64,000 nt of DNA from a bacterium (GTDB lineage: Bacteria > Patescibacteriota > Patescibacteriia > JACQRZ01): positions 39,489 to 103,488 of the forward strand of contig JAHFJA010000002.1 of the NCBI GenBank assembly GCA_023246095.1. Direction: 5' to 3'. Below, one piece after another: positions 12,075 to 63,418 of the stretch. Under the pieces are notes generated by a model, which did no database searches, was not told where the DNA came from, and saw only the letters and a list, made by a program, of their open reading frames with translations. The stretch's first letter is position 1. Each line of letters starts with the position of its first letter. Position numbers and translations under genes: made by a program.

Positions 12075-12106
12075 AAAAAACTGCTCTCAAAAGCAGTTTT
12101 TTGTTT
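12075..12106 (+). terminator. Rho-independent terminator after clpP
   Basis: aaaactgct / agcagtttt stem followed by a T-tract. Confidence 0.6.
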
Positions 12107-12135
12107 ATGTACAAACGTTTTTCAACCATGTATGC

Positions 12136-12164
12136 TTGACAAAAAGAGTAAAATATGCTATTTT
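12136..12164 (+). promoter_or_regulatory. Sigma70-like promoter (TTGACA ... TATTTT) for the 12223 gene
   Basis: TTGACA at 12136-12141; A/T-rich -10 candidates 15-17 nt downstream. Confidence 0.35.
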
Positions 12165-12222
12165 CTTGATTAGAGAGTGACTAAACGTTACTTGAAATTA
12201 TAAAAAACAAAGGAGAATTGGA

Positions 12223-12990
12223 ATGGAACTGAGAATAGTTGACATCACTTTTGAAAGCATGGTGAAAGCGGTTCAAAAGCACATAGGTAATAAAATCATT
12301 GGCACTGATTTACACCCTAGGGCCCTTGAATACTTAGAGGTGTTCAAAAACAACCCCAATGGGGACCTTAGTATTGAATTAGAAGATTGGCTTTTTGGAA
12401 CAGAAGAAGGCGCAAGCTTTAGATCGGCTATAATCTACAAACCAGAGACAATTTTTGAAATAGCTGCGCCTGAACGTTTCCCCACACCCGAGGACGTTAT
12501 TGCTTTCATCGGAACAATAACCAAAGGAAAGGAGTGTAAAGAAAACAAAGACCGGAGAGGAAAAGATGACAAAGGTGTTATTTATTTCATGGAATTCCAA
12601 GTCTCCGGCGAAAGTAAAGGAGAAATGGATGAATATGAATACGTGAAAAAAGGGACCACTCCAAATGGTAAGATATACTCTAAAACAGAAATTTCGGTAG
12701 CTTACTACATTGATGGTGAACCTAGGGGTGGTCAAAACGTAGCAAAGTATGTTGATGGTTCATGGGAGATATATCCAGATGCCGACATAGCGTACTGGAA
12801 AAACTACGCTTTAAACGACCTTCGGAAGTCATTCCCTGTTGAAAAATTCGATACCATACGAAAATTAGATCCTGCCAGCAAAGACTTTAGTGACATTACC
12901 GCACAGGCCAAGCTATTCGGTATTCCTACTATAACCTCGGAAGAAGACCTTATGGCGTTGAAAACAATCATGTATCCAAACGAAGTATAA
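12223..12990 (+). CDS. Hypothetical protein (255 aa), stand-alone cassette with its own promoter and terminator
   Basis: ORF with AAAGGAGAA Shine-Dalgarno; flanked by terminators. Confidence 0.55.
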   Translation: MELRIVDITFESMVKAVQKHIGNKIIGTDLHPRALEYLEVFKNNPNGDLSIELEDWLFGTEEGASFRSAIIYKPETIFEIAAPERFPTPEDVIAFIGTITKGKECKENKDRRGKDDKGVIYFMEFQVSGESKGEMDEYEYVKKGTTPNGKIYSKTEISVAYYIDGEPRGGQNVAKYVDGSWEIYPDADIAYWKNYALNDLRKSFPVEKFDTIRKLDPASKDFSDITAQAKLFGIPTITSEEDLMALKTIMYPNEV

Positions 12991-13009
12991 CTACTCCAAA
13001 AAAAATAAA

Positions 13010-13040
13010 TAGGGCATTAAAACAATGCTCTATTTTATTT
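13010..13040 (+). terminator. Probable terminator (tagggcatt/aatgctcta stem with one mismatch, then a T-tract)
   Basis: Inverted repeat read from the sequence. Confidence 0.4.
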
Positions 13041-51207: not shown

Positions 51208-51564
51208 TTACTCCTTTATTGGGCTAAGAAGTTTCTTCAATGTCGGTATATCCTCCTTCAATGTGTCCCACAGTATTGGTAACTCAATGTCGTCGTAGTG
51301 ATGAATCAATTTATCTCGCATTCCTGCCATTTCTCTCCAAGGAATATCCGGATATTGTTTTTTCATCGACAATGAAATACGTTTTGCCGCTTCACCGATT
51401 ATTTCAATACGCCGAATAATAGCATCTTGTGTTTTAGTATCACCAGCGAAAGAAGTTTTCTTTACACCCTTAATATAACTTTCTATCGCATAGATAGAAT
51501 CGGCAATATGCTTAACGTATAACTGATCCCTCTTAGAAGAGTCGTTTTTTTTCTTTGTTGACAT
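51208..51564 (-). CDS. hepT: HepT-family (DUF86) toxin RNase
   Basis: Rx4HxY motif RDKLIHHY; 118 aa; overlaps the upstream MntA-like gene. Confidence 0.75.
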   Translation of the reverse strand: MSTKKKNDSSKRDQLYVKHIADSIYAIESYIKGVKKTSFAGDTKTQDAIIRRIEIIGEAAKRISLSMKKQYPDIPWREMAGMRDKLIHHYDDIELPILWDTLKEDIPTLKKLLSPIKE

Positions 51565-51823
51565 TTGAGCGCATGTGTTTACAAAGACTCTCTTCGGTTA
51601 TGAGATCCACTCTCTTACCAATGAGGTCCTCTATTTGAAATTGCAAACCGAGAAGTCCTAAAAGGGTAACTTTCTTATTCTTTTTGAATGTGACAAGAAG
51701 ATCAAGATCACTCGTTTTTTTTGCATCTCCTCGCGCGTACGAGCCAAATATATGAGCGCGAGAAACTCCCGATTTCTTTAAAATCGGTATTGTATTTGAA
51801 AATTGTTGTATAGCTTGTTCCAT
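51533..51823 (-). CDS. mntA: MntA-family minimal nucleotidyltransferase antitoxin
   Basis: The GS-hG motif block FGSYARGDAKKTSDLDLLV with acidic residues; 96 aa; upstream of and overlapping hepT. Confidence 0.75.
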   Translation of the reverse strand: MEQAIQQFSNTIPILKKSGVSRAHIFGSYARGDAKKTSDLDLLVTFKKNKKVTLLGLLGLQFQIEDLIGKRVDLITEESLCKHMRSNVNKEKKRLF

Positions 51824-53617: not shown

Positions 53618-56215
53618 TTAAAAATCTGAACCAATACAATCCTTGTCAAAATATATTCCACCAGGACTAAACAAATTACCATTTTCGTACCTAGCACTAC
53701 ACGTCATATATCGATACATCGATGGAAGACCCGAACCTACTGTTGCTGGGTGCATATCTATTTTTAATATACCGAGATCCATTTCAAGAGCTACTCCAAC
53801 AAATAAGTTTCGACCTACATATGTCTCATTAGCTGAAGACAAATCTCCACCAGAAACAATATCGCCATCAGCAACAATATTACGCCCAACAGTAAGATCT
53901 CGCCCCACATCGGTATCTCTACCTGAATGTAAGCGATCTCCACCTATTTCTCCTGTTACACCAATATTCCCTCCGTGAGTAAGGTCAGTTAAACTACCTA
54001 TTAAAGCTATATCTTTCCCGTTTGCTACATATCCAGCATCAAGAACTGCTTGAAGATCACCAGATCCCCCTGTCCCTGTACCCCCCGGCCAATCTGTTCT
54101 ACAAACACCACCGATACAGACATTTCCCTTGAAATTTGCAAGCCCCTCAAACGTGGCTTGCTCTCTAAACCAAGAAAAATCGTCAACTTGTAGTGCATTT
54201 TGATGCAGCCCTCCAATCATAGGTAGTGCCTCAATTTGTAATCCACCTTGAAGGTTAATTTTATTGTTCGTAACAGCCCCCAGGTCTGTAACTTGTTGCA
54301 ACGTGCCCACTGAACCGCTTCCTGACGGATATGTGATAACGTTTGTAATTGACGTACTATCATTGGTATCTCCAAGATTATCTTTGCCACACCCCCAACC
54401 AGTGCCATTATACTTGAGTACTTGCTGGCTGGAACAGGAAGGCAACTGCATAGGTGATGGCCAACCAATTCTGCAATCTGTTCCTATACAAACCGTTGGT
54501 GCCTTTAATTGCATATTTGACGTAATAGCACCCGTAGCCGTGATTATACCGCCTGATACAATCTGGCCAGTAGTAGTAACGGAACCGGCACTTAGTGTAC
54601 GGATCTGCATATCTTGAGTTGGTGCCTGATTGTTAATAGCAAGAACATCACCAAGACCTTGATTTCCTACCTTAAGAACAAGCCGGTCCGGTGACCAAGT
54701 ACTGATACATGTTGCTCCATTAAGACATATCGAGGGTGTAGTCACCGAGGTTGTTGCAGTAATCGCTCCTGCGGTTAACGCCCCACTACCCGCATTAATA
54801 CCAGCTCCGTTGGTGACAATACCCCCATTGGCCGACAAAAGTCCCGTAAACGTCCCCGTACCTCCGCTAATAGGACCAGTTCCAGCATTAATACCAGCTC
54901 CGTTGGTGACTACACCCCCATTAGCAGTTAAGAGTCCTGTGATAGTGGTGGCGCCTGTAACACCAAGTTTACCTTTTAGTGTCGTATCATTCGATACATC
55001 TAACGTTCCATTGATGGCGGTATTGCCCCCGATAGTCAAACGATTCCCTGCTACAGGCGGTGTTCCGATACCGACCAATCCATTTATTTGAAGATTCCCA
55101 TAACTACCGGAAGGACTCGTCCCGTTTACACTCAATAAATCCCCCGTTGATGCGCCCTCCAGAACACTCACTGCATTAACTCCCGTCCCCACTCCGATCT
55201 GGTACTTTCCTGTTTTGGAAGCAGTACCCGACTGTATCGTCCCATTCACATCAAGTGGTACTGCGGGGTTTGCTCTCCCAATACCCACAAGTCCGTTTAT
55301 CGCAACATTAGTATAAGCATTAGAACCCCCAATTGGCCCGTTGATGTTCAGTAAGCTTCCATCAGCCACGGAAGATTCTATTGCCGACTTACCTCCAATT
55401 TGAAATTTTCCTAGATTATTAGCCGTACTTGATTGCACTGTCCCGTTTACATCAAGCGCTGTCGCGGGACTAACATTCCCGATCCCCATCCTATTATTCA
55501 AAAGCGTAACAAACTTGTTTATAATCCCCCCATTTTTTATGTCCAAATTCCCTGCGGCTTCCATATTTCCGTCAGTGTCGACGCGAAACTTTTTAACAAA
55601 CCCTTTTTCAAACAACAGAAAATTCGGCGTAGTAAGCGGGTTACCTGTAGAGAACGTATTATTATGCACATTTCCAAACAAAAGATTTGTCCCTGCAGCC
55701 AAGATAGGACCCGGGCTAATAGGGCCCAGAGCAACATCAAACACGGTACCCAAAGTTGTCATACCCCCGATAGCGGTTGTCTCATCCCCATCTTGGTCCA
55801 GCACGACCCCGTGTGTCGTAAAGCGTCCCTTGTTCGTCACGTCTTGAAGTGAAGGACTGATGTTCAGCCAATCACTTCGACAATCAGGACTCGAGGCAGG
55901 TCCAAAACAAAGAGTGGAAACAACAAGCCTGCCCCCTGCACTACTTCCCAACACCATATCACCCAAAAATTTGGAAGCATCGGCGCTAATATCAAGAACA
56001 CTTTTTAACCCCCCAGGACCAGCACCCGTATCTGGTTGTCCGTAGGGAGGAAGCTGTACCGGCTCTTTAAACGCTGCCTGTGCAACCTGGTGACCCATGA
56101 ACACGAACAAGGCAACCGCGACCACCAAAAAAGGAAGCAGTACTTTTTTTGTAGTGGCTATCCCCTTCTTCGACTTTAGTTCTGATGATGTTGATATGTT
56201 CTTTATCTCTTTCAT
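53618..56215 (-). CDS. Giant (865 aa) secreted Gly/Thr/Asn-rich repeat protein, beta-helix / fibre-like
   Basis: N-terminal signal/TM LLPFLVVAVALFVFMGHQVAQA; repeated GIGxxxPxxxLDVNGT(V/I)QS units; two ~31-aa tandem repeats NGG(V/I)VTNGAGINAG(T/S)G. Confidence 0.6.
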   Translation of the reverse strand: MKEIKNISTSSELKSKKGIATTKKVLLPFLVVAVALFVFMGHQVAQAAFKEPVQLPPYGQPDTGAGPGGLKSVLDISADASKFLGDMVLGSSAGGRLVVSTLCFGPASSPDCRSDWLNISPSLQDVTNKGRFTTHGVVLDQDGDETTAIGGMTTLGTVFDVALGPISPGPILAAGTNLLFGNVHNNTFSTGNPLTTPNFLLFEKGFVKKFRVDTDGNMEAAGNLDIKNGGIINKFVTLLNNRMGIGNVSPATALDVNGTVQSSTANNLGKFQIGGKSAIESSVADGSLLNINGPIGGSNAYTNVAINGLVGIGRANPAVPLDVNGTIQSGTASKTGKYQIGVGTGVNAVSVLEGASTGDLLSVNGTSPSGSYGNLQINGLVGIGTPPVAGNRLTIGGNTAINGTLDVSNDTTLKGKLGVTGATTITGLLTANGGVVTNGAGINAGTGPISGGTGTFTGLLSANGGIVTNGAGINAGSGALTAGAITATTSVTTPSICLNGATCISTWSPDRLVLKVGNQGLGDVLAINNQAPTQDMQIRTLSAGSVTTTGQIVSGGIITATGAITSNMQLKAPTVCIGTDCRIGWPSPMQLPSCSSQQVLKYNGTGWGCGKDNLGDTNDSTSITNVITYPSGSGSVGTLQQVTDLGAVTNNKINLQGGLQIEALPMIGGLHQNALQVDDFSWFREQATFEGLANFKGNVCIGGVCRTDWPGGTGTGGSGDLQAVLDAGYVANGKDIALIGSLTDLTHGGNIGVTGEIGGDRLHSGRDTDVGRDLTVGRNIVADGDIVSGGDLSSANETYVGRNLFVGVALEMDLGILKIDMHPATVGSGLPSMYRYMTCSARYENGNLFSPGGIYFDKDCIGSDF

Positions 56216-56327: not shown

Positions 56328-57038
56328 TCATCTCAAAACCGATTGATAGTTCTTAAGCAAAAATACTGTTTCGGTTTTGAGATGCGTCTTGACCCACGCT
56401 TTATTTTTTTCATTCAAAAGCTCACCTAATCCTTGCAATATCTGTGCATCTTTCACTTGTTCGACAAGAGAAATACAGTCATCGATGTACTCTTTCAGGC
56501 TTTTTGTCGTCCACTTCGCCAACACCTCTCTGTCAATATCCCAGTTATTTTTTGCAAAGTACCACACATCGTAGATATCACGCATTGCGGTTTCGCTTCG
56601 CAAGGTCAACGCAGCAAGCTTGCTTGCGAATAGATATGGCCTTTTGGCAACGAACATTGAAATCCCCAAATACTCTTTTAGTTCATATTCCTCCTTGAGG
56701 TCAGGCACCACCCTTCTTGTACTTATCTCAATTTTAATATTGTGGTCAGTATCCCCGTAAGAAAGAAGACAAAAGATAGTATTCATTTTTATGTAACTGT
56801 CTTTGATAATGCCATATCGCTCTAAAATCGTTTTAATCCTCTCGAAGATTAATGTATAAGTATCTTGATCGCCACCAATCACATCAAAATCCAAATCAAC
56901 TGAAAATCGTGGCAACTCGTAAAAAAAATATGCACACGTACCCCCTTTAAAACCCAAAAATGGCGCAATTGACACATCAGCATATATGTCTCGCAAAATC
57001 CGTCCCATTATGAGTTGGTGTTTTTCTCTATTCAGCAT
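56328..57038 (-). CDS. abiEii: AbiEii/AbiGii-family nucleotidyltransferase toxin (DUF1814)
   Basis: GFKGGTCAYFFY...RFSVDLDFD motif (GG...S.DLDF of the AbiEii NTase). Confidence 0.75.
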   Translation of the reverse strand: MLNREKHQLIMGRILRDIYADVSIAPFLGFKGGTCAYFFYELPRFSVDLDFDVIGGDQDTYTLIFERIKTILERYGIIKDSYIKMNTIFCLLSYGDTDHNIKIEISTRRVVPDLKEEYELKEYLGISMFVAKRPYLFASKLAALTLRSETAMRDIYDVWYFAKNNWDIDREVLAKWTTKSLKEYIDDCISLVEQVKDAQILQGLGELLNEKNKAWVKTHLKTETVFLLKNYQSVLR

Positions 57039-57642
57039 ATTTTTTTTGATATCTCCTCAATCGTCTGACGAGCTGTTCGTTCCCATATAGCGAGACCAAA
57101 TCAAAACACTTATCCCAATTAACAGGACGAAGATTATCAAAATGGTAGTCGGGAAAAAGATATATCATATCCAAAAATGCTCGCTCTGCCGAGGCAATAC
57201 CATACGTGCCTTTGTTCTCTATCCCCATTCCATTAAACAACACAGTGTCTTTTAATGTTCTAAATATGATAGTTGTCGAATCGATAACCATTGTTTTCGA
57301 CCAGGGGCCGGCAACAAAAATTGCGTCATAATACTGAAACACCATACCTTCTTCTCGAAGCACGGATTCAAAACTGATATATGAAGGAGTATAGATACTC
57401 GTCGCGAGTTCTTTTGAATTATAATTCTTATCTTTTGCAAACACACCACGAGTAAGGCGGATTAAGTCTCCTTGTTTAACATAATATGATATCTTTGATT
57501 TCAGGTTATTTCGATTCGTTTCTCCCCATAATAAAGCTAAATCCTTGCTCGTAAGGATTGTTTTGGGGGACTGGTACAATATAGCAATCAAGTTATCCAT
57601 GACGATATGTTTGATGGAAGTACTATACACTCTTACTTCCAT
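57028..57642 (-). CDS. abiEi: AbiEi-family antitoxin / transcriptional regulator (possible start at 57600)
   Basis: LIRLTRGVF (RG.F/Y) and PSYISFESVL motifs shared with the paralog at 60993; overlaps the toxin start by 11 nt. Confidence 0.65.
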   Translation of the reverse strand: MEVRVYSTSIKHIVMDNLIAILYQSPKTILTSKDLALLWGETNRNNLKSKISYYVKQGDLIRLTRGVFAKDKNYNSKELATSIYTPSYISFESVLREEGMVFQYYDAIFVAGPWSKTMVIDSTTIIFRTLKDTVLFNGMGIENKGTYGIASAERAFLDMIYLFPDYHFDNLRPVNWDKCFDLVSLYGNEQLVRRLRRYQKKYAE

Positions 57643-59696: not shown

Positions 59697-60113
59697 TTAT
59701 TTAATGATAGTCGCAGGAACACTAAACGCGTATTGTGCAATGCCCCATGCAGAGAGAATAATAACAAGCCCAATAACTCCCTGTATCAACATTTTTTGTG
59801 CGGATTCAACTTGTTCATCTTTACCTCCTGCGGTCATCCATTTGAAACCTGCAATCAAAATGATAATCACGGCGATAATACCGAGAAACCCAAGAACAAA
59901 ATTAATAACCGATACCACTGTCTCGTAGGGGGCAATAGCTGTCGAATCATGACCTGGCAATGGTGCATTTTTTGAATCGTTTAATCCATATCCAGTCGTT
60001 GGGACAACCGGCGCCGCCGCATTCACCATCGACACAGGCAAAAGTCCAAAACCTACCGTCAATACACTCGCGACAAGGAACGTTCGTACTACGTTTTTGA
60101 GAGTTGTTTTCAT
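59697..60113 (-). CDS. TrbC/VirB2-like pilin paralog 5
   Basis: Motif LIAGFKWMTAGGKDEQVESAQKMLIQGVIGLVIILSAWGI. Confidence 0.7.
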   Translation of the reverse strand: MKTTLKNVVRTFLVASVLTVGFGLLPVSMVNAAAPVVPTTGYGLNDSKNAPLPGHDSTAIAPYETVVSVINFVLGFLGIIAVIIILIAGFKWMTAGGKDEQVESAQKMLIQGVIGLVIILSAWGIAQYAFSVPATIIK

Positions 60114-60214
60114 ACAACGTACAAGGAAATTAAAAATAAATTCTTATTAAGTACTTATAGTATAGCAGACTGTTTTAAGAGCGGAAGTGAATTACTTTTT
60201 ACTACTTCATCTAA

Positions 60215-60991
60215 TCATAGTGGTGCCTGCGTAATGAACTCACGAAATAGTTCAACTTTCCGAACATCACTCGCATCGAACAAAAAAGGTTGTATGTCTC
60301 GTCCTAGTTCTTTAAAATCCAGTCCAGCCGTTGATTCCAACATTCTCGCGCGGAGCCCTTCCGGATCCCCTACCCCAATCTTTGCCTGAAGATACTCATA
60401 GTTCGGTTTGGTAAACGAGGAAAGGAAGACAATGTCATAAAAATCACGACCTTTCGCGCGCTTGCGATTTATCGCCGCAAACATCTTCTGAGAAAGTAAT
60501 ATGTCAGGAGGGGTAACGAAAATCTCCGAAAATACGTCAAACTTGTTAAGAATTTTCTTGTCTGGTTGATAAGAGACGCCATGAGCCAGACTGTCAACTT
60601 GTATGAGAATCTTTTCTTCCTGATATGGTGACAGTTCATTCACAAATAGTATATCAGGCAACCGCACTCGACACCGATAGGCGTCTTTACCAACAGTATC
60701 GATTTCAACGCGCAAACCTTGCCGCTCCAGTTCAACTTGGATGATGTGCGCAAGCTCTTCAAACTCGCCGTCTTCCAGATTGAAATTATCAAAGTCTAAA
60801 TCTTCCGAAAATCGGGTATTCCCATATATAATTCGTAACGCAGTACCACCCAAGAACGCCAGTTTAGCGGCATGCGGGGAAGCAAAAATAATTTCAAGGA
60901 TCTTATACTGAAGGTACTCTCGAAGAATACCCCGTTTGAATGGACGTAACGACTCCGGATATTGTTGTTCGATTTGCTGCAAGGTCAACAT
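60215..60991 (-). CDS. abiEii: AbiEii/AbiGii-family nucleotidyltransferase toxin (DUF1814)
   Basis: Canonical FLGGTALRIIYGNTRFSEDLDFD motif. Confidence 0.85.
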   Translation of the reverse strand: MLTLQQIEQQYPESLRPFKRGILREYLQYKILEIIFASPHAAKLAFLGGTALRIIYGNTRFSEDLDFDNFNLEDGEFEELAHIIQVELERQGLRVEIDTVGKDAYRCRVRLPDILFVNELSPYQEEKILIQVDSLAHGVSYQPDKKILNKFDVFSEIFVTPPDILLSQKMFAAINRKRAKGRDFYDIVFLSSFTKPNYEYLQAKIGVGDPEGLRARMLESTAGLDFKELGRDIQPFLFDASDVRKVELFREFITQAPL

Positions 60992-60992
60992 A

Positions 60993-61613
60993 TCATTTTG
61001 ATTGTTTAATCAACGAGATAAGATCTTCTGTTCTCCTTAGAAACCCCCTACTTGTATACACCATGGCATATTTCCGAAATTTTTTTATGTCGGCTTTTTC
61101 TAAAAACTCTTCACTATTGAACCTCCATTCGTAAAAATCTTCAGGCTTAATAATATTTGGGTGGAGATATACATAATCGAGCACTGCTTTTTCAATCTCC
61201 GCAATTTTGTACGTATATCCATTCTTTGTTTCCAGTCGATACCCAAAAAAATACTCCGCTTTAATTTGTTGGTATGAAAATTCCGTAACCGGTGACTTAA
61301 AACTGGCCGTCTTCTTACTGGACGCCGAGGTAATCGAATATACCCCCTCCGGAATCAAACCATAATACGACAACGCCATTTCAAAAGATACGTACGATGG
61401 CGGGTATAACCGATTTGCAATCAAAAACAATACCTCTTCGCTCAAAGGAAGATCGGCAAACATGTAATAACCACGACGCAGCTTCTTGATATATCCCTTA
61501 TTTTGCCACTCATTAAGCTGATGACGATAAAAAGTTGGATCGATCTTGCGAATATCCACCAAGGAAAAAACAGCAAAGTCTTTCAACTCTCCTTGTAATT
61601 GTTGGTACTTCAT
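60993..61613 (-). CDS. abiEi: AbiEi-family antitoxin (start at MKYQQLQ; ORF extends to 61679)
   Basis: KKLRRGYYMF and PSYVSFEMALSYYGLIP motifs; 1-nt gap to the downstream toxin. Confidence 0.7.
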   Translation of the reverse strand: MKYQQLQGELKDFAVFSLVDIRKIDPTFYRHQLNEWQNKGYIKKLRRGYYMFADLPLSEEVLFLIANRLYPPSYVSFEMALSYYGLIPEGVYSITSASSKKTASFKSPVTEFSYQQIKAEYFFGYRLETKNGYTYKIAEIEKAVLDYVYLHPNIIKPEDFYEWRFNSEEFLEKADIKKFRKYAMVYTSRGFLRRTEDLISLIKQSK

Positions 61614-61711
61614 AGATTTCCGAAACGTACTATATTTAGTACTCTTTGGAATTATAACAACAGAGAAAGAATCGCGCAAACGATATCATGTCTACACATC
61701 GGTGTGTTACT

Positions 61712-62068
61712 TTATTTCCCCAACAAAGCAGTGAGGAGGAATCTGACGATTGCGGCGCTGGCGAAGATGACCGCCATACCGATTGCGGCCCATATCATGG
61801 TATCCATGCCTTTTGTTACTTTTCCTTTATCCCCTGCCGAGGTCATCCAGAGAATACCGCCATAAACAAAGACCACCAGTGCGATTGAGCCGGACAGGCC
61901 GAGAAATGCATTGATAACCAAGCCAATAAATTCCGCGGGGCTATTCACTGCGAGAGGGTTTTCAAGAGTCACGTTACCAGCAGCGGCGTATGCGAAGTGA
62001 GTGGTAAGGAGGGTGATGCCGGCTATCGCTGTTGATAGGGTGACGGTACTATTTTTGGGGAGGGGCAT
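61712..62068 (-). CDS. TrbC/VirB2-like pilin paralog 6 (short, 118 aa)
   Basis: Motif VYGGILWMTSAGDKGKVTKGMDTMIWAAIGMAVIFASAAI. Confidence 0.7.
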   Translation of the reverse strand: MPLPKNSTVTLSTAIAGITLLTTHFAYAAAGNVTLENPLAVNSPAEFIGLVINAFLGLSGSIALVVFVYGGILWMTSAGDKGKVTKGMDTMIWAAIGMAVIFASAAIVRFLLTALLGK

Positions 62069-62086: not shown

Positions 62087-63418
62087 TTAATAGATTATTG
62101 CGTTGGGACAGTCTACTTTCCATCTTTCATCCATGCCAATAAATTCTGTGGTTCCACAGGATGTCGCATTAGGACAGTAGAACTTATTATGAATTGTTAC
62201 GTCCAAAAACGCCTTATTTTGACAGTCAGTAGATGAGATAGACTCGCTGGTATGAAATGCAGTCCCTGATCCATTGGTATTATACGATACACAGCATACC
62301 CCATTTGAAATAACTACAGGAGCGCCACATTTCCCTGCGGTACACTGTCCTGTCTTACATTGTGCAGGGTCTGTACATGCTTCATTATCGTTCTTTTTTA
62401 ACTCACAAGTACCATTCGCAGGGTCGTTTGGGTTAGTACAGTACTGAGTCCCCGCACATTGCGCTTGCATTGGTGGAACCTCACATTTTTGACCCGTTAA
62501 TTTTATCGGCAACACACAGCAACACTTGTTTCCTGTAATAAGATATGACGATACAAACACTCGATTCTTGTTTGTCTGATTACTCGCGACCGCGTCACAA
62601 ACAGCGCTTCCAAAACCACAATCACTGTTAGCTATAAAATGATCCGTACTAGTACAAGACTCATCTTTACAATGATAGCAATACGGTGCTGCGCCCACCC
62701 CTGTACTAAACTCAAATTTTCCCGCACCACACATTTGCAATGCTTTGGCCGAGGCCTCGGCGTACGTTACATAACAGCCACCCTGACTTTGCGCTTGAGT
62801 TTGAGCTAGTTGTATCTCCGGCACCACCCCAATCGTTCCAAAGTGTATCGGCGTACAAATATCTGCTTGATATGACCATTTGCTAGTACCATTAAAAATT
62901 CCTCCCAGACGACCTGCAAGTGTCTTGTCGCCCGTTTCTTTTTTAATCAAACTAGTCATAACAAAGTTTACCGCCATCCAGCTGGTAAACACAATCACGA
63001 GCCCAATCGCGGCGTTGACCATCGTCTCTGTCCCTTTTGTCACTTTCCCTTTATCCCCCGCCGAAGTTAAATACTGAAAGCCCCCCAACACCACCATCAA
63101 AAGCGCGACACTGCCGCTTATGCCCAGAATAAACGTTGCGATATTGATAGCAAGCTGAATAAACGCATCCAAGGTATAATTACAACACAACATATCGCAC
63201 ATCGGGATGATCTTGCTTATAAGCTCACCTGATTGCGGTGCACACATTGCCGGTCCCCCTGCACATCCCCCAGGAACAAACGACGCTGTTGATTTACCCG
63301 CCAATGTCGAATCTGCCCACACCAGCGTAGCAGTAGCGCCGATGCTGGCGATAACCATAACGCCAAAAAGAAATGACAGTATGGCGAGGCGGTATTTTTT
63401 TGGATGACGAAGTTTCAT
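62087..63418 (-). CDS. TrbC/VirB2-like pilin module fused to a ~300-aa Cys-rich C-terminal ectodomain
   Basis: Motif LGGFQYLTSAGDKGKVTKGTETMVNAAIGLVIVFTSWMAV, followed by a domain with >35 Cys (CCCVLP, CTAGKCG, CCVSY and others). Confidence 0.65.
   Translation of the reverse strand: MKLRHPKKYRLAILSFLFGVMVIASIGATATLVWADSTLAGKSTASFVPGGCAGGPAMCAPQSGELISKIIPMCDMLCCNYTLDAFIQLAINIATFILGISGSVALLMVVLGGFQYLTSAGDKGKVTKGTETMVNAAIGLVIVFTSWMAVNFVMTSLIKKETGDKTLAGRLGGIFNGTSKWSYQADICTPIHFGTIGVVPEIQLAQTQAQSQGGCYVTYAEASAKALQMCGAGKFEFSTGVGAAPYCYHCKDESCTSTDHFIANSDCGFGSAVCDAVASNQTNKNRVFVSSYLITGNKCCCVLPIKLTGQKCEVPPMQAQCAGTQYCTNPNDPANGTCELKKNDNEACTDPAQCKTGQCTAGKCGAPVVISNGVCCVSYNTNGSGTAFHTSESISSTDCQNKAFLDVTIHNKFYCPNATSCGTTEFIGMDERWKVDCPNAIIY

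Follow-up and report, generated by a model that had tools for sequence, protein, structure and literature searches.

The window analysed here is a 64,000-nucleotide (nt) stretch of contig JAHFJA010000002.1 (assembly GCA_023246095.1, positions 39,489 to 103,488) from a probable Patescibacteria (candidate phyla radiation, CPR) genome, and it carries an AbiE toxin–antitoxin pair inside a row of pilin genes. We confirm that window positions 60215–61613 hold an intact two-gene AbiE module, which adds one member to a family both very common and annotated before. Both genes lie on the reverse strand: abiEi (60993..61613) encodes a 206-aa antitoxin and predicted transcriptional repressor, with a predicted N-terminal winged helix and C-terminal toxin-neutralising domain, and abiEii (60215..60991) encodes a 258-aa DUF1814 nucleotidyltransferase toxin, assigned by Pfam, PADLOC and a fold model. 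The cassette was very probably acquired horizontally and inserted into an older, conserved pilin row, which makes it a clean case of a toxin–antitoxin cassette tolerated inside a conserved surface-structure gene row. The module alone matters little, as AbiE is among the commonest toxin–antitoxin and defence modules, and annotation already covers many of the thousands of members of this subfamily.

Gene order and family assignment

Read directly from the sequence, the abiEi stop codon (TGA, 60995-60993) is separated from the abiEii ATG (60991) by the single base 60992, and abiEii ends with a TGA at 60217-60215. The original prediction, made from the DNA letters, had described an antitoxin-then-toxin order with a 1-nt gap, exactly as found. 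The abiEi open reading frame (ORF) extends maximally over 60993-61679(-), and translation from its internal ATG at 61613 yields 206 aa beginning MKYQQLQ...; this start and the abiEii start are also used by public gene calls on identical sequence in two other assemblies. All three peptide strings quoted for the pair are present, AFLGGTALRIIYGNTRFSEDLDFDNF in the 258-aa product and KKLRRGYYMFADL and YPPSYVSFEMALSYYG in the 206-aa product.

Hidden Markov model searches assigned both proteins to AbiE families. abiEii passed the Pfam model AbiEii PF08843 (E=6.5e-20; 72.5 bits, cut-off 22.5) and matched PADLOC AbiEii PDLC02313 (E=4e-96) over residues 1-255, the profile having 254 positions. abiEi matched the PADLOC AbiEi models PDLC02241 (E=5.5e-59, residues 1-200) and PDLC02272 (E=2.3e-55), both at full length. 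The E-values for PF08843, PDLC02313 and PDLC02241 place these matches far beyond chance and, together with the catalytic motifs, the predicted folds, the gene order and the conserved promoter palindrome, they uphold the AbiEi/AbiEii identity first proposed.

Three points count against this assignment on the antitoxin side. abiEi, in contrast to its partner, had no match to any AbiEi model in Pfam; its match to NCBIfam NF047376 (E=1.8e-7, 31 bits) fell far under the cut-off of 150; and the antitoxin assignment draws on the PADLOC models and on a predicted fold of moderate template-modelling (TM) score. The consequence is practical, in that Pfam-based surveys would score orphan AbiEii toxins wherever this abiEi subfamily goes unrecognised. 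Homologues of abiEi carry the JGI label 'predicted transcriptional regulator of viral defense system'. Among the 543 homologues of the subfamily, those NCBI records that bear names say 'hypothetical protein', while the partner toxin is annotated.

Catalytic residues and fold of the toxin

We aligned 48 toxin sequences, which include 46 homologues at 66-80% identity and the divergent second toxin of the window. Invariant across this alignment are G48, G49 and T50; R60, F61, S62, D64, D66, F67 and D68; K169; R176; R182 and D183; and D186. The AbiEii motifs, defined as hG[GS]...DhD, K..A...R and +DxxD (PMC3985639) and taken here as motifs I-IV (hGG, R..DhD, K..A...R, +DxxD), are present in the window toxin as L47-G48-G49, R60...D64-L-D66, K169..A172...R176 and R182-D183-F-Y-D186.

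A profile built from the same alignment matched JHP933 best among PDB sequences (E=4.8e-10) and also matched 9hlo_B, deposited as 'Abortive infection protein AbiGII' (E=5e-5). The 9hlo_B residues at aligned positions agree with the published numbering of Streptococcus agalactiae AbiEii, and the pairs run G48/G49 to G49/G50, R60 to R63, S62 to T65, D64/D66 to D67/D69, K169 to K173, R176 to R180 and D183 to D192. In the S. agalactiae enzyme, alanine at G49, R63, D67, D69, K173, R180 or D192 abolishes toxicity (Dy et al. 2014, PMC3985639). Every residue that is mutationally essential in AbiEii is thus present in the 258-aa toxin, and the objection that a catalytic motif might be missing fails. 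The predicted nucleotidyltransferase motif is there, although its form is GG...DLD and not the GS...D.D originally given.

A Ser/Thr acceptor position lies two residues before the first catalytic aspartate. In the window toxin this is the invariant S62 of R60-F-S62-E-D64, a putative phospho-site that aligns to T65, the phospho-site of S. agalactiae AbiEii (10.64898/2026.01.19.700257).

The AlphaFold2 model of the toxin has a predicted local distance difference test score (pLDDT) of 93.9 and a predicted TM score (pTM) of 0.90. Compared with the PDB by Foldseek, its top nine matches were JHP933 or MenT3/TglT, all of them DUF1814 nucleotidyltransferases (E 4e-9 to 6e-8), and the model accordingly predicts a DUF1814 nucleotidyltransferase fold. 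Toxins from different candidate phyla are 54-80% identical, which indicates strong purifying selection.

Predicted fold of the antitoxin

The AlphaFold2 model of the antitoxin (pLDDT 84.1, pTM 0.72) begins with three helices and a beta-hairpin, and its C-terminal domain is mixed alpha/beta. We read the N-terminal helices and hairpin as a probable winged helix. Searches of PDB sequences with abiEi, as a single sequence or as a profile, found no solved relative; fold comparison alone gave S. agalactiae AbiEi (6Y8Q), the best match of the model (E=2.2e-7, 201 aligned columns, TM 0.56-0.62). The model thereby predicts the two-domain AbiEi fold. The next related match was Rv2827c (1ZEL; E=0.06), a mycobacterial protein that serves as the antitoxin in a MenAT pair.

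Across the antitoxin family alignment, G85-L86-I87-P88-E89-G90 is nearly invariant. In S. agalactiae AbiEi the loop D85/E86/I87 is needed for antitoxicity (10.64898/2026.01.19.700257), and we infer from the near-identical residue numbers that GLIPEG (85-90) may be its equivalent.

A conserved promoter and a putative operator

Directly upstream of abiEi, on the same strand, a putative promoter (61651..61679) combines a -35-like TTGCGC (61679-61674) with an extended -10, TGTTATAAT (61659-61651), at a spacing of 17 nt. A consensus promoter scan did not report it, as its -35 matches only 3/6 positions. Between the -10 and the start codon lies a 34-nt palindrome, TTCCAAAGAGTAC-N8-GTACGTTTCGGAA (61618..61651, reverse strand), which ends 4 nt before the abiEi ATG and has 10 of 13 arm positions complementary.

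The same layout recurs in homologous cassettes of other genomes. An alignment of 79 upstream regions has in common cTTGa, TGCTAT.ATAAT and then a palindrome of 13+13 nt with an A/T-rich spacer of 8-10 nt, and most of the 77 distinct regions hold an equivalent palindrome at the same position. The arms vary by lineage yet stay complementary (GAGTAC/GTACTC, ATATGTT/AACATAT, GTATTCC/GGAATAC), with a mean of 10.2/13 complementary positions.

The palindrome may act as DNA or as RNA. It lies downstream of the -10 and is probably transcribed, stopping 4 nt short of the ATG, and its predicted folding energy as RNA is -12.2 kcal/mol (z=-2.9 relative to shuffled sequences); a hairpin in the 5' untranslated region that tunes translation or mRNA stability, in place of a DNA operator, would fit these properties. 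The pattern of mismatches speaks otherwise. Across cassettes the arms contain 47 G.T mismatches, barely above 37 A.C, and 130 others, so there is no wobble preference of the kind that a selected RNA stem would leave, and we therefore interpret the palindrome as an operator at the DNA level that evolves together with its repressor. Homologues of AbiEi are documented to bind inverted repeats in their own promoters, giving autoregulation (PMC3985639; PMC7319586). We consider a role as RNA hairpin in place of an operator quite unlikely, while the two roles could coexist. The sequence at 61618-61651 is accordingly a putative AbiEi operator. In one locus (L035) the promoter and palindrome unit, about 55 nt, is tandemly duplicated, the two copies lying about 130 nt upstream of abiEi.

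Probable insertion into a conserved pilin row

The genes on either side of the module encode T4SS_pilin/TrbC-type pilins (PF18895; T4SS, type IV secretion system), both on the reverse strand. pil2 (61712..62068, 118 aa, PF18895 E=4.4e-11) lies directly upstream of the insert, and pil3 (59697..60113, 138 aa, E=7.2e-10) directly downstream, its own conserved upstream region intact. Counted from low to high coordinates, the module stands between pilin paralogs 5 and 6, as originally stated.

Beyond pil2, at 62087-63418(-), a 443-aa protein combines a T4SS_pilin domain (residues 89-153) with a C-terminal extension rich in cysteines. An initial scan of metagenomes with this protein gave zero matches; among 5.8 billion proteins it has three homologues only, each the first gene of a syntenic pilin row (loci L089, L090 and L091). 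L090, L089 and L091 have orthologues of pil2 at 80%, 76% and 59-63% identity, respectively; those of pil3 are 65% in L090 and 52% in L091; and in L090 pil4 is 70% and the solute-binding protein (SBP) 88% identical. Reciprocal BLAST established one-to-one orthology along L091 (GCA_030688365.1), in the order SPP-SBP(76%)-pil1-pil2a/2b-pil3-pil4-pil5-pil6-pil7-(p865-like)-...-IleS-RuvA(70%)-FemAB.

Comparison of these related genomes at the exact site found two different states. In L091 the pil2b-pil3 spacer is 93 nt and the spacer from pil7 to the next gene 19 nt, and the syntenic locus lacks the AbiE module, the second AbiE pair of the window and its MNT/HepT pair. In L090 (GCA_964357385.1), the closer relative, a 275-aa Bro-N-domain gene occupies exactly the pil2|pil3 junction (12081-13017).

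DNA alignments further showed that about 100 nt upstream of pil3 are kept in the window, L090 and L091, beginning with AAAGTAAT.CAC. L091 has a single copy of this junction motif, right behind the stop codon of pil2b; the window and L090 each have two, one on either side of the insert. The left copy in the window, TAAAGTAACACAC (61702..61714, reverse strand), includes the pil2 stop codon and stops 88 nt short of the abiEi ATG, an offset shared with the clear flanking repeats at other loci. The right copy, TAAAAAGTAATTCAC (60187..60201, reverse strand), is the start of the conserved pil3 upstream region and aligns onward with the single-copy site of L091 and with the right junction of L090. Since the motif is single in L091 and doubled around the insert in the window, the insert spans 60202-61701, about 1500 bp, with both pilin genes and the pil3 upstream region undamaged. 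In both the window and L090 a 13-nt core, TAA-A/T-GTAA-Y-N-CAC, stands on either side of the cargo, which is AbiE in the former and Bro-N in the latter. At the L090 insert the motif, about 13 nt long, reads TAATGTAACTCAC ... TAAAGTAATTCAC.

The empty junction in L091, the other cargo in L090 and the presence of the cassette in many unrelated contexts argue for insertion of a horizontally acquired AbiE cassette into an older pilin row. Against this stand three observations: the 13-nt junction repeat of the window is not significant alone, as 28% of non-cognate pairs score as high; L091 is distant (IleS 44% identical), so that loss there, as opposed to gain here, is formally conceivable; and the G+C content of the cassette does not differ from that of its flanks, leaving no compositional signature of foreign DNA. 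On balance the proposal that the element invaded the array is well borne out, with 86 other loci placing the cassette in unrelated contexts. The pil2|pil3 junction looks like a recurrent insertion or exchange site, with different cargo per lineage.

Distribution of the cassette and its relation to pilins

Searches returned 6524 homologues of the toxin and 543 of the antitoxin. The toxin family occurs in at least 479 species-level genomes, mostly Patescibacteria of many candidate phyla and also Smithella, Omnitrophota and further groups; in the search of genome contigs the best match was 79% identical. abiEi lies directly upstream of abiEii, on the same strand, in 86/87 loci, the exception being at a contig end, with a spacing of -26 to +12 nt. 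Contexts differ widely, for instance beside transposase and restriction-modification (methyltransferase/helicase) genes in L002 and beside phage-like helix-turn-helix genes in L003. We found no relatives in IMG/VR or among GenBank phages and hence no evidence of phage origin; one copy is on a plasmid, in Runella slithyformis (47.5% identity). At 7368-8777 of L007 (GCA_030674435.1), a cassette whose toxin is 78% identical sits between adk and map, at the end of a ribosomal-protein/secY operon, a striking position for a toxin gene.

It had been suggested that the module may protect the surface-structure locus. A functional tie of this kind, in which AbiE guards a phage-receptor or DNA-uptake structure or is co-regulated with it, could draw on local features: the module is on the same strand as all pilin genes, there is no convincing terminator between abiEii and pil3, so that read-through is possible, and five of the seven pilin genes lie between the two AbiE pairs. 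Co-occurrence is absent, however. No pilin gene lies within 10 kb in any of 86 cassette loci (the window's own sequence excluded), and no AbiEi- or AbiEii-like gene occurs in any of 67 pilin arrays, which are those with three or more pilin genes among 80 metagenomic pilin loci. The syntenic L091 array lacks both AbiE pairs, and pil3 retains its own conserved upstream region. A tie to the pilins is therefore highly improbable, the suggestion of protection has nothing in its favour from these comparisons, and the pilin neighbourhood is incidental to the function of the cassette.

The big gaps in the 67 pilin arrays mostly hold a conserved solute-binding-protein gene, not foreign genes. A lipoprotein of about 458 aa lies inside the pilin run of L115, L117, L118, L122, L140, L147, L155, L156, L159 and L161 and resembles the SBP_bac_1 protein encoded just upstream of the window array, which suggests that the solute-binding protein is a conserved part of such pilin loci. 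We also considered the pilin array as part of a conjugative element with an addiction module and found no support for this: the surrounding 35 kb are chromosomal housekeeping genes, and the annotated 26-64 kb contain no T4SS ATPase.

Cassette boundaries and flanking direct repeats

Cassette copies resemble one another from a point about 85-90 nt ahead of the abiEi ATG down to the abiEii stop codon. In the 79 loci compared, neither the sequence before the -35 nor that beyond the stop was conserved, and the cassette has no terminal inverted repeats and no transposase or recombinase gene. Direct repeats of host sequence (score >=16) flank the cassette in 11/71 non-redundant loci (~15%), against 3/369 control pseudo-sites shifted by 2.5-7 kb in the same loci (Fisher p=2e-7). 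The repeats abut the cassette precisely in at least seven loci, the upstream copy ending 73-104 nt before the ATG and the downstream copy starting 0-15 nt past the stop. Clear flanking repeats, 16-66 bp long and of local sequence, occur in L013, L016, L018, L025, L042, L047 and L086. Their content differs from locus to locus: the 3' end of the upstream ORF in L016, a terminator hairpin in L013 and, in L028, what appears to be part of a tRNA gene. Flanking direct repeats above background were absent from the second AbiE pair and the MNT/HepT pair of the window.

A classical transposon or insertion sequence is ruled out by the missing terminal repeats, the variable repeat length of 16-66 bp and the lack of a transposase. 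One could propose that the promoter-to-stop cassette is a discrete mobile unit that crosses phyla without a recombinase and leaves target duplications of 16-66 bp, with pil2|pil3 perhaps a recurrent site; we regard this as unlikely. The repeats might have arisen by Campbell-type re-insertion of excised circles within populations, by a recombinase acting in trans, or by illegitimate insertion with target duplication followed by trimming to a minimal functional unit. A literature search for a mechanism behind toxin–antitoxin cassettes flanked by direct repeats found nothing relevant. If true, the mobile-unit proposal would point to an undescribed insertion route for small defence or addiction cassettes, and the sharply bounded cassette with its frequent flanking duplications offers a lead on how two-gene modules spread.

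A mechanism proposed from related systems

By analogy with S. agalactiae AbiE and Mycobacterium tuberculosis MenAT, the cassette would work as follows. The operon would be transcribed from the extended -10 promoter, and the winged-helix domain of AbiEi would bind the 34-nt palindrome and repress its own operon. The C-terminal domain of AbiEi, with the GLIPEG loop (85-90), may bind AbiEii and cause its auto-phosphorylation on Ser62, beside Asp64/Asp66, blocking nucleotide binding. Should the supply of AbiEi stop, because a phage shuts off host expression or because the DNA is lost, unphosphorylated AbiEii would add nucleotides to tRNA 3' ends, and this modification of tRNA would arrest translation and growth. 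The outcome would be abortive infection, maintenance of the cassette-bearing DNA segment, or both.

S. agalactiae AbiEi binds AbiEii and induces its auto-phosphorylation, by which AbiE would be type VII (Arrowsmith et al. 2026 preprint, 10.64898/2026.01.19.700257); a type VII mechanism is also described for MenA/MenT (PMC11375011, PMC7205606). For related toxins, transfer of nucleotides to tRNA 3' ends and a stop of translation are reported (PMC7450476, PMC10435456), and the S. agalactiae enzyme uses pyrimidines. The original 'type IV' label therefore needs qualifying: AbiE is a toxin–antitoxin system as stated, while its type is under revision, the same preprint favouring type VII.

The closest characterised system is the AbiE of S. 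agalactiae and Lactococcus lactis, a COG5340 antitoxin with a COG2253/DUF1814 toxin (PMC3985639). The window module shares with it a two-gene operon with the antitoxin first, toxin motifs I-IV together with the position of the phospho-acceptor, a promoter-region inverted repeat, and an antitoxin of about 200 aa whose predicted fold matches 6Y8Q at full length. It differs from S. agalactiae AbiE in sequence (~16% identity in structural alignments), in a spacing from the motif I GG to the motif II DxD that is two residues shorter, in an antitoxin that escapes every Pfam AbiEi model, and in having a single 13+13-nt palindrome between -10 and ATG, whereas S. agalactiae has two 23-bp repeats around its -35.

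MenA3/MenT3 of the M. tuberculosis MenAT family (TakA/TglT, Rv1044/Rv1045) shares the DUF1814 toxin fold (Foldseek E ~2e-8 to 6J7R and 6Y5U), a Ser/Thr phospho-acceptor beside the catalytic aspartates (S78 in MenT3), a COG5340-type antitoxin and an expected target in tRNA acceptor ends; MenT toxins are longer, about 290 aa against 258, and only ~14-15% identical. Helicobacter pylori JHP933 (4O8S, 4OK0), the best match by profile and also by fold (E=4.2e-9, TM 0.55-0.60), has in common the motifs GxTAL...RFSEDLDFD and K...R..RD.YD, but is ~17% identical and sits in a plasticity-zone/conjugative-element context. In type VII MNT/HepT (MntA/HepT) modules (PMC7641770), a copy of which lies 9 kb away in the same variable region, a toxin is likewise neutralised by chemical modification; these families are not related to AbiE, and in them the nucleotidyltransferase serves as antitoxin, where in AbiE it is the toxin.

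Two considerations caution against a firm functional reading. The predicted toxicity, its neutralisation, binding to DNA, phosphorylation and resistance to phage are all carried over from distant homologues of ~15-17% identity in structural alignments, and S. agalactiae AbiE gave no protection against 32 coliphages in E. coli, so that a role in defence is not assured. The cassette may instead be a purely selfish addiction element, or a decaying remnant, of no benefit to the cell, kept only because losing it is lethal or because it has yet to be deleted. Three toxin–antitoxin modules inside 10 kb of a variable region would suit this, as would the arbitrary contexts of the cassette, which reach even into a ribosomal-protein operon, the known stabilisation of plasmids by AbiE (PMC3985639) and the failure to protect against phage in E. 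coli. Decay is contradicted by two full-length genes with all essential residues, and lack of benefit by the purifying selection evident from the toxin identities across candidate phyla; phage resistance is moreover conferred by AbiE of lactococci and of Serratia (PMC3985639; PMC7725324). We judge the purely selfish or decaying alternative somewhat unlikely, and addiction and defence are not mutually exclusive.

Other modules in the window

The window holds two more toxin–antitoxin pairs, also on the reverse strand. At the other end of the pilin run from the first pair, abiEii-2 (56328-57038, 236 aa) matched PF08843 (E=3.8e-20) and PADLOC PDLC02324 (E=1.2e-71), and abiEi-2 (ORF 57028-57642, 204 aa) matched PDLC02255 (E=7e-56). 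A perfect TTGACA-17-TATAAT lies at 57669-57641, followed by a palindrome, GGAAGTA-N11-TACTTCC, at 57640-57616. As the 204-aa ORF would begin inside the -10, the PADLOC alignment runs from residue 16 and the ENA call is 190 aa, the likely abiEi-2 start is the ATG at 57600 (190 aa). The two AbiE pairs are 28% identical in their toxins and 35% in their antitoxins. This divergence and their different PADLOC subfamilies rule out a recent duplication, and the low identity indicates that the second pair was independently acquired.

The third module pairs MNT (51533-51823, 96 aa, NTP_transf_2, PF01909 E=4e-17) with HepT (51208-51564, 118 aa, PF01934 E=9.8e-29), the two genes overlapping by 32 nt. Three toxin–antitoxin modules thus lie within a 10-kb region that also contains the pilin genes and the gene of a large surface protein, and L091 lacks all three. 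The surrounding region is chromosomal, with rpoB, rpoC, ftsK, recA, ileS, ruvA, femAB and a murE-type ligase gene, and no Rfam family was found in 50-64 kb.

Directly after the pilin run, at 53618-56215(-), an 865-aa glycine-/threonine-rich repetitive protein with an N-terminal hydrophobic segment has no Pfam match. It shares its C-terminal part only (48% identity over 161 aa) with a 495-aa protein at the same position in L091.

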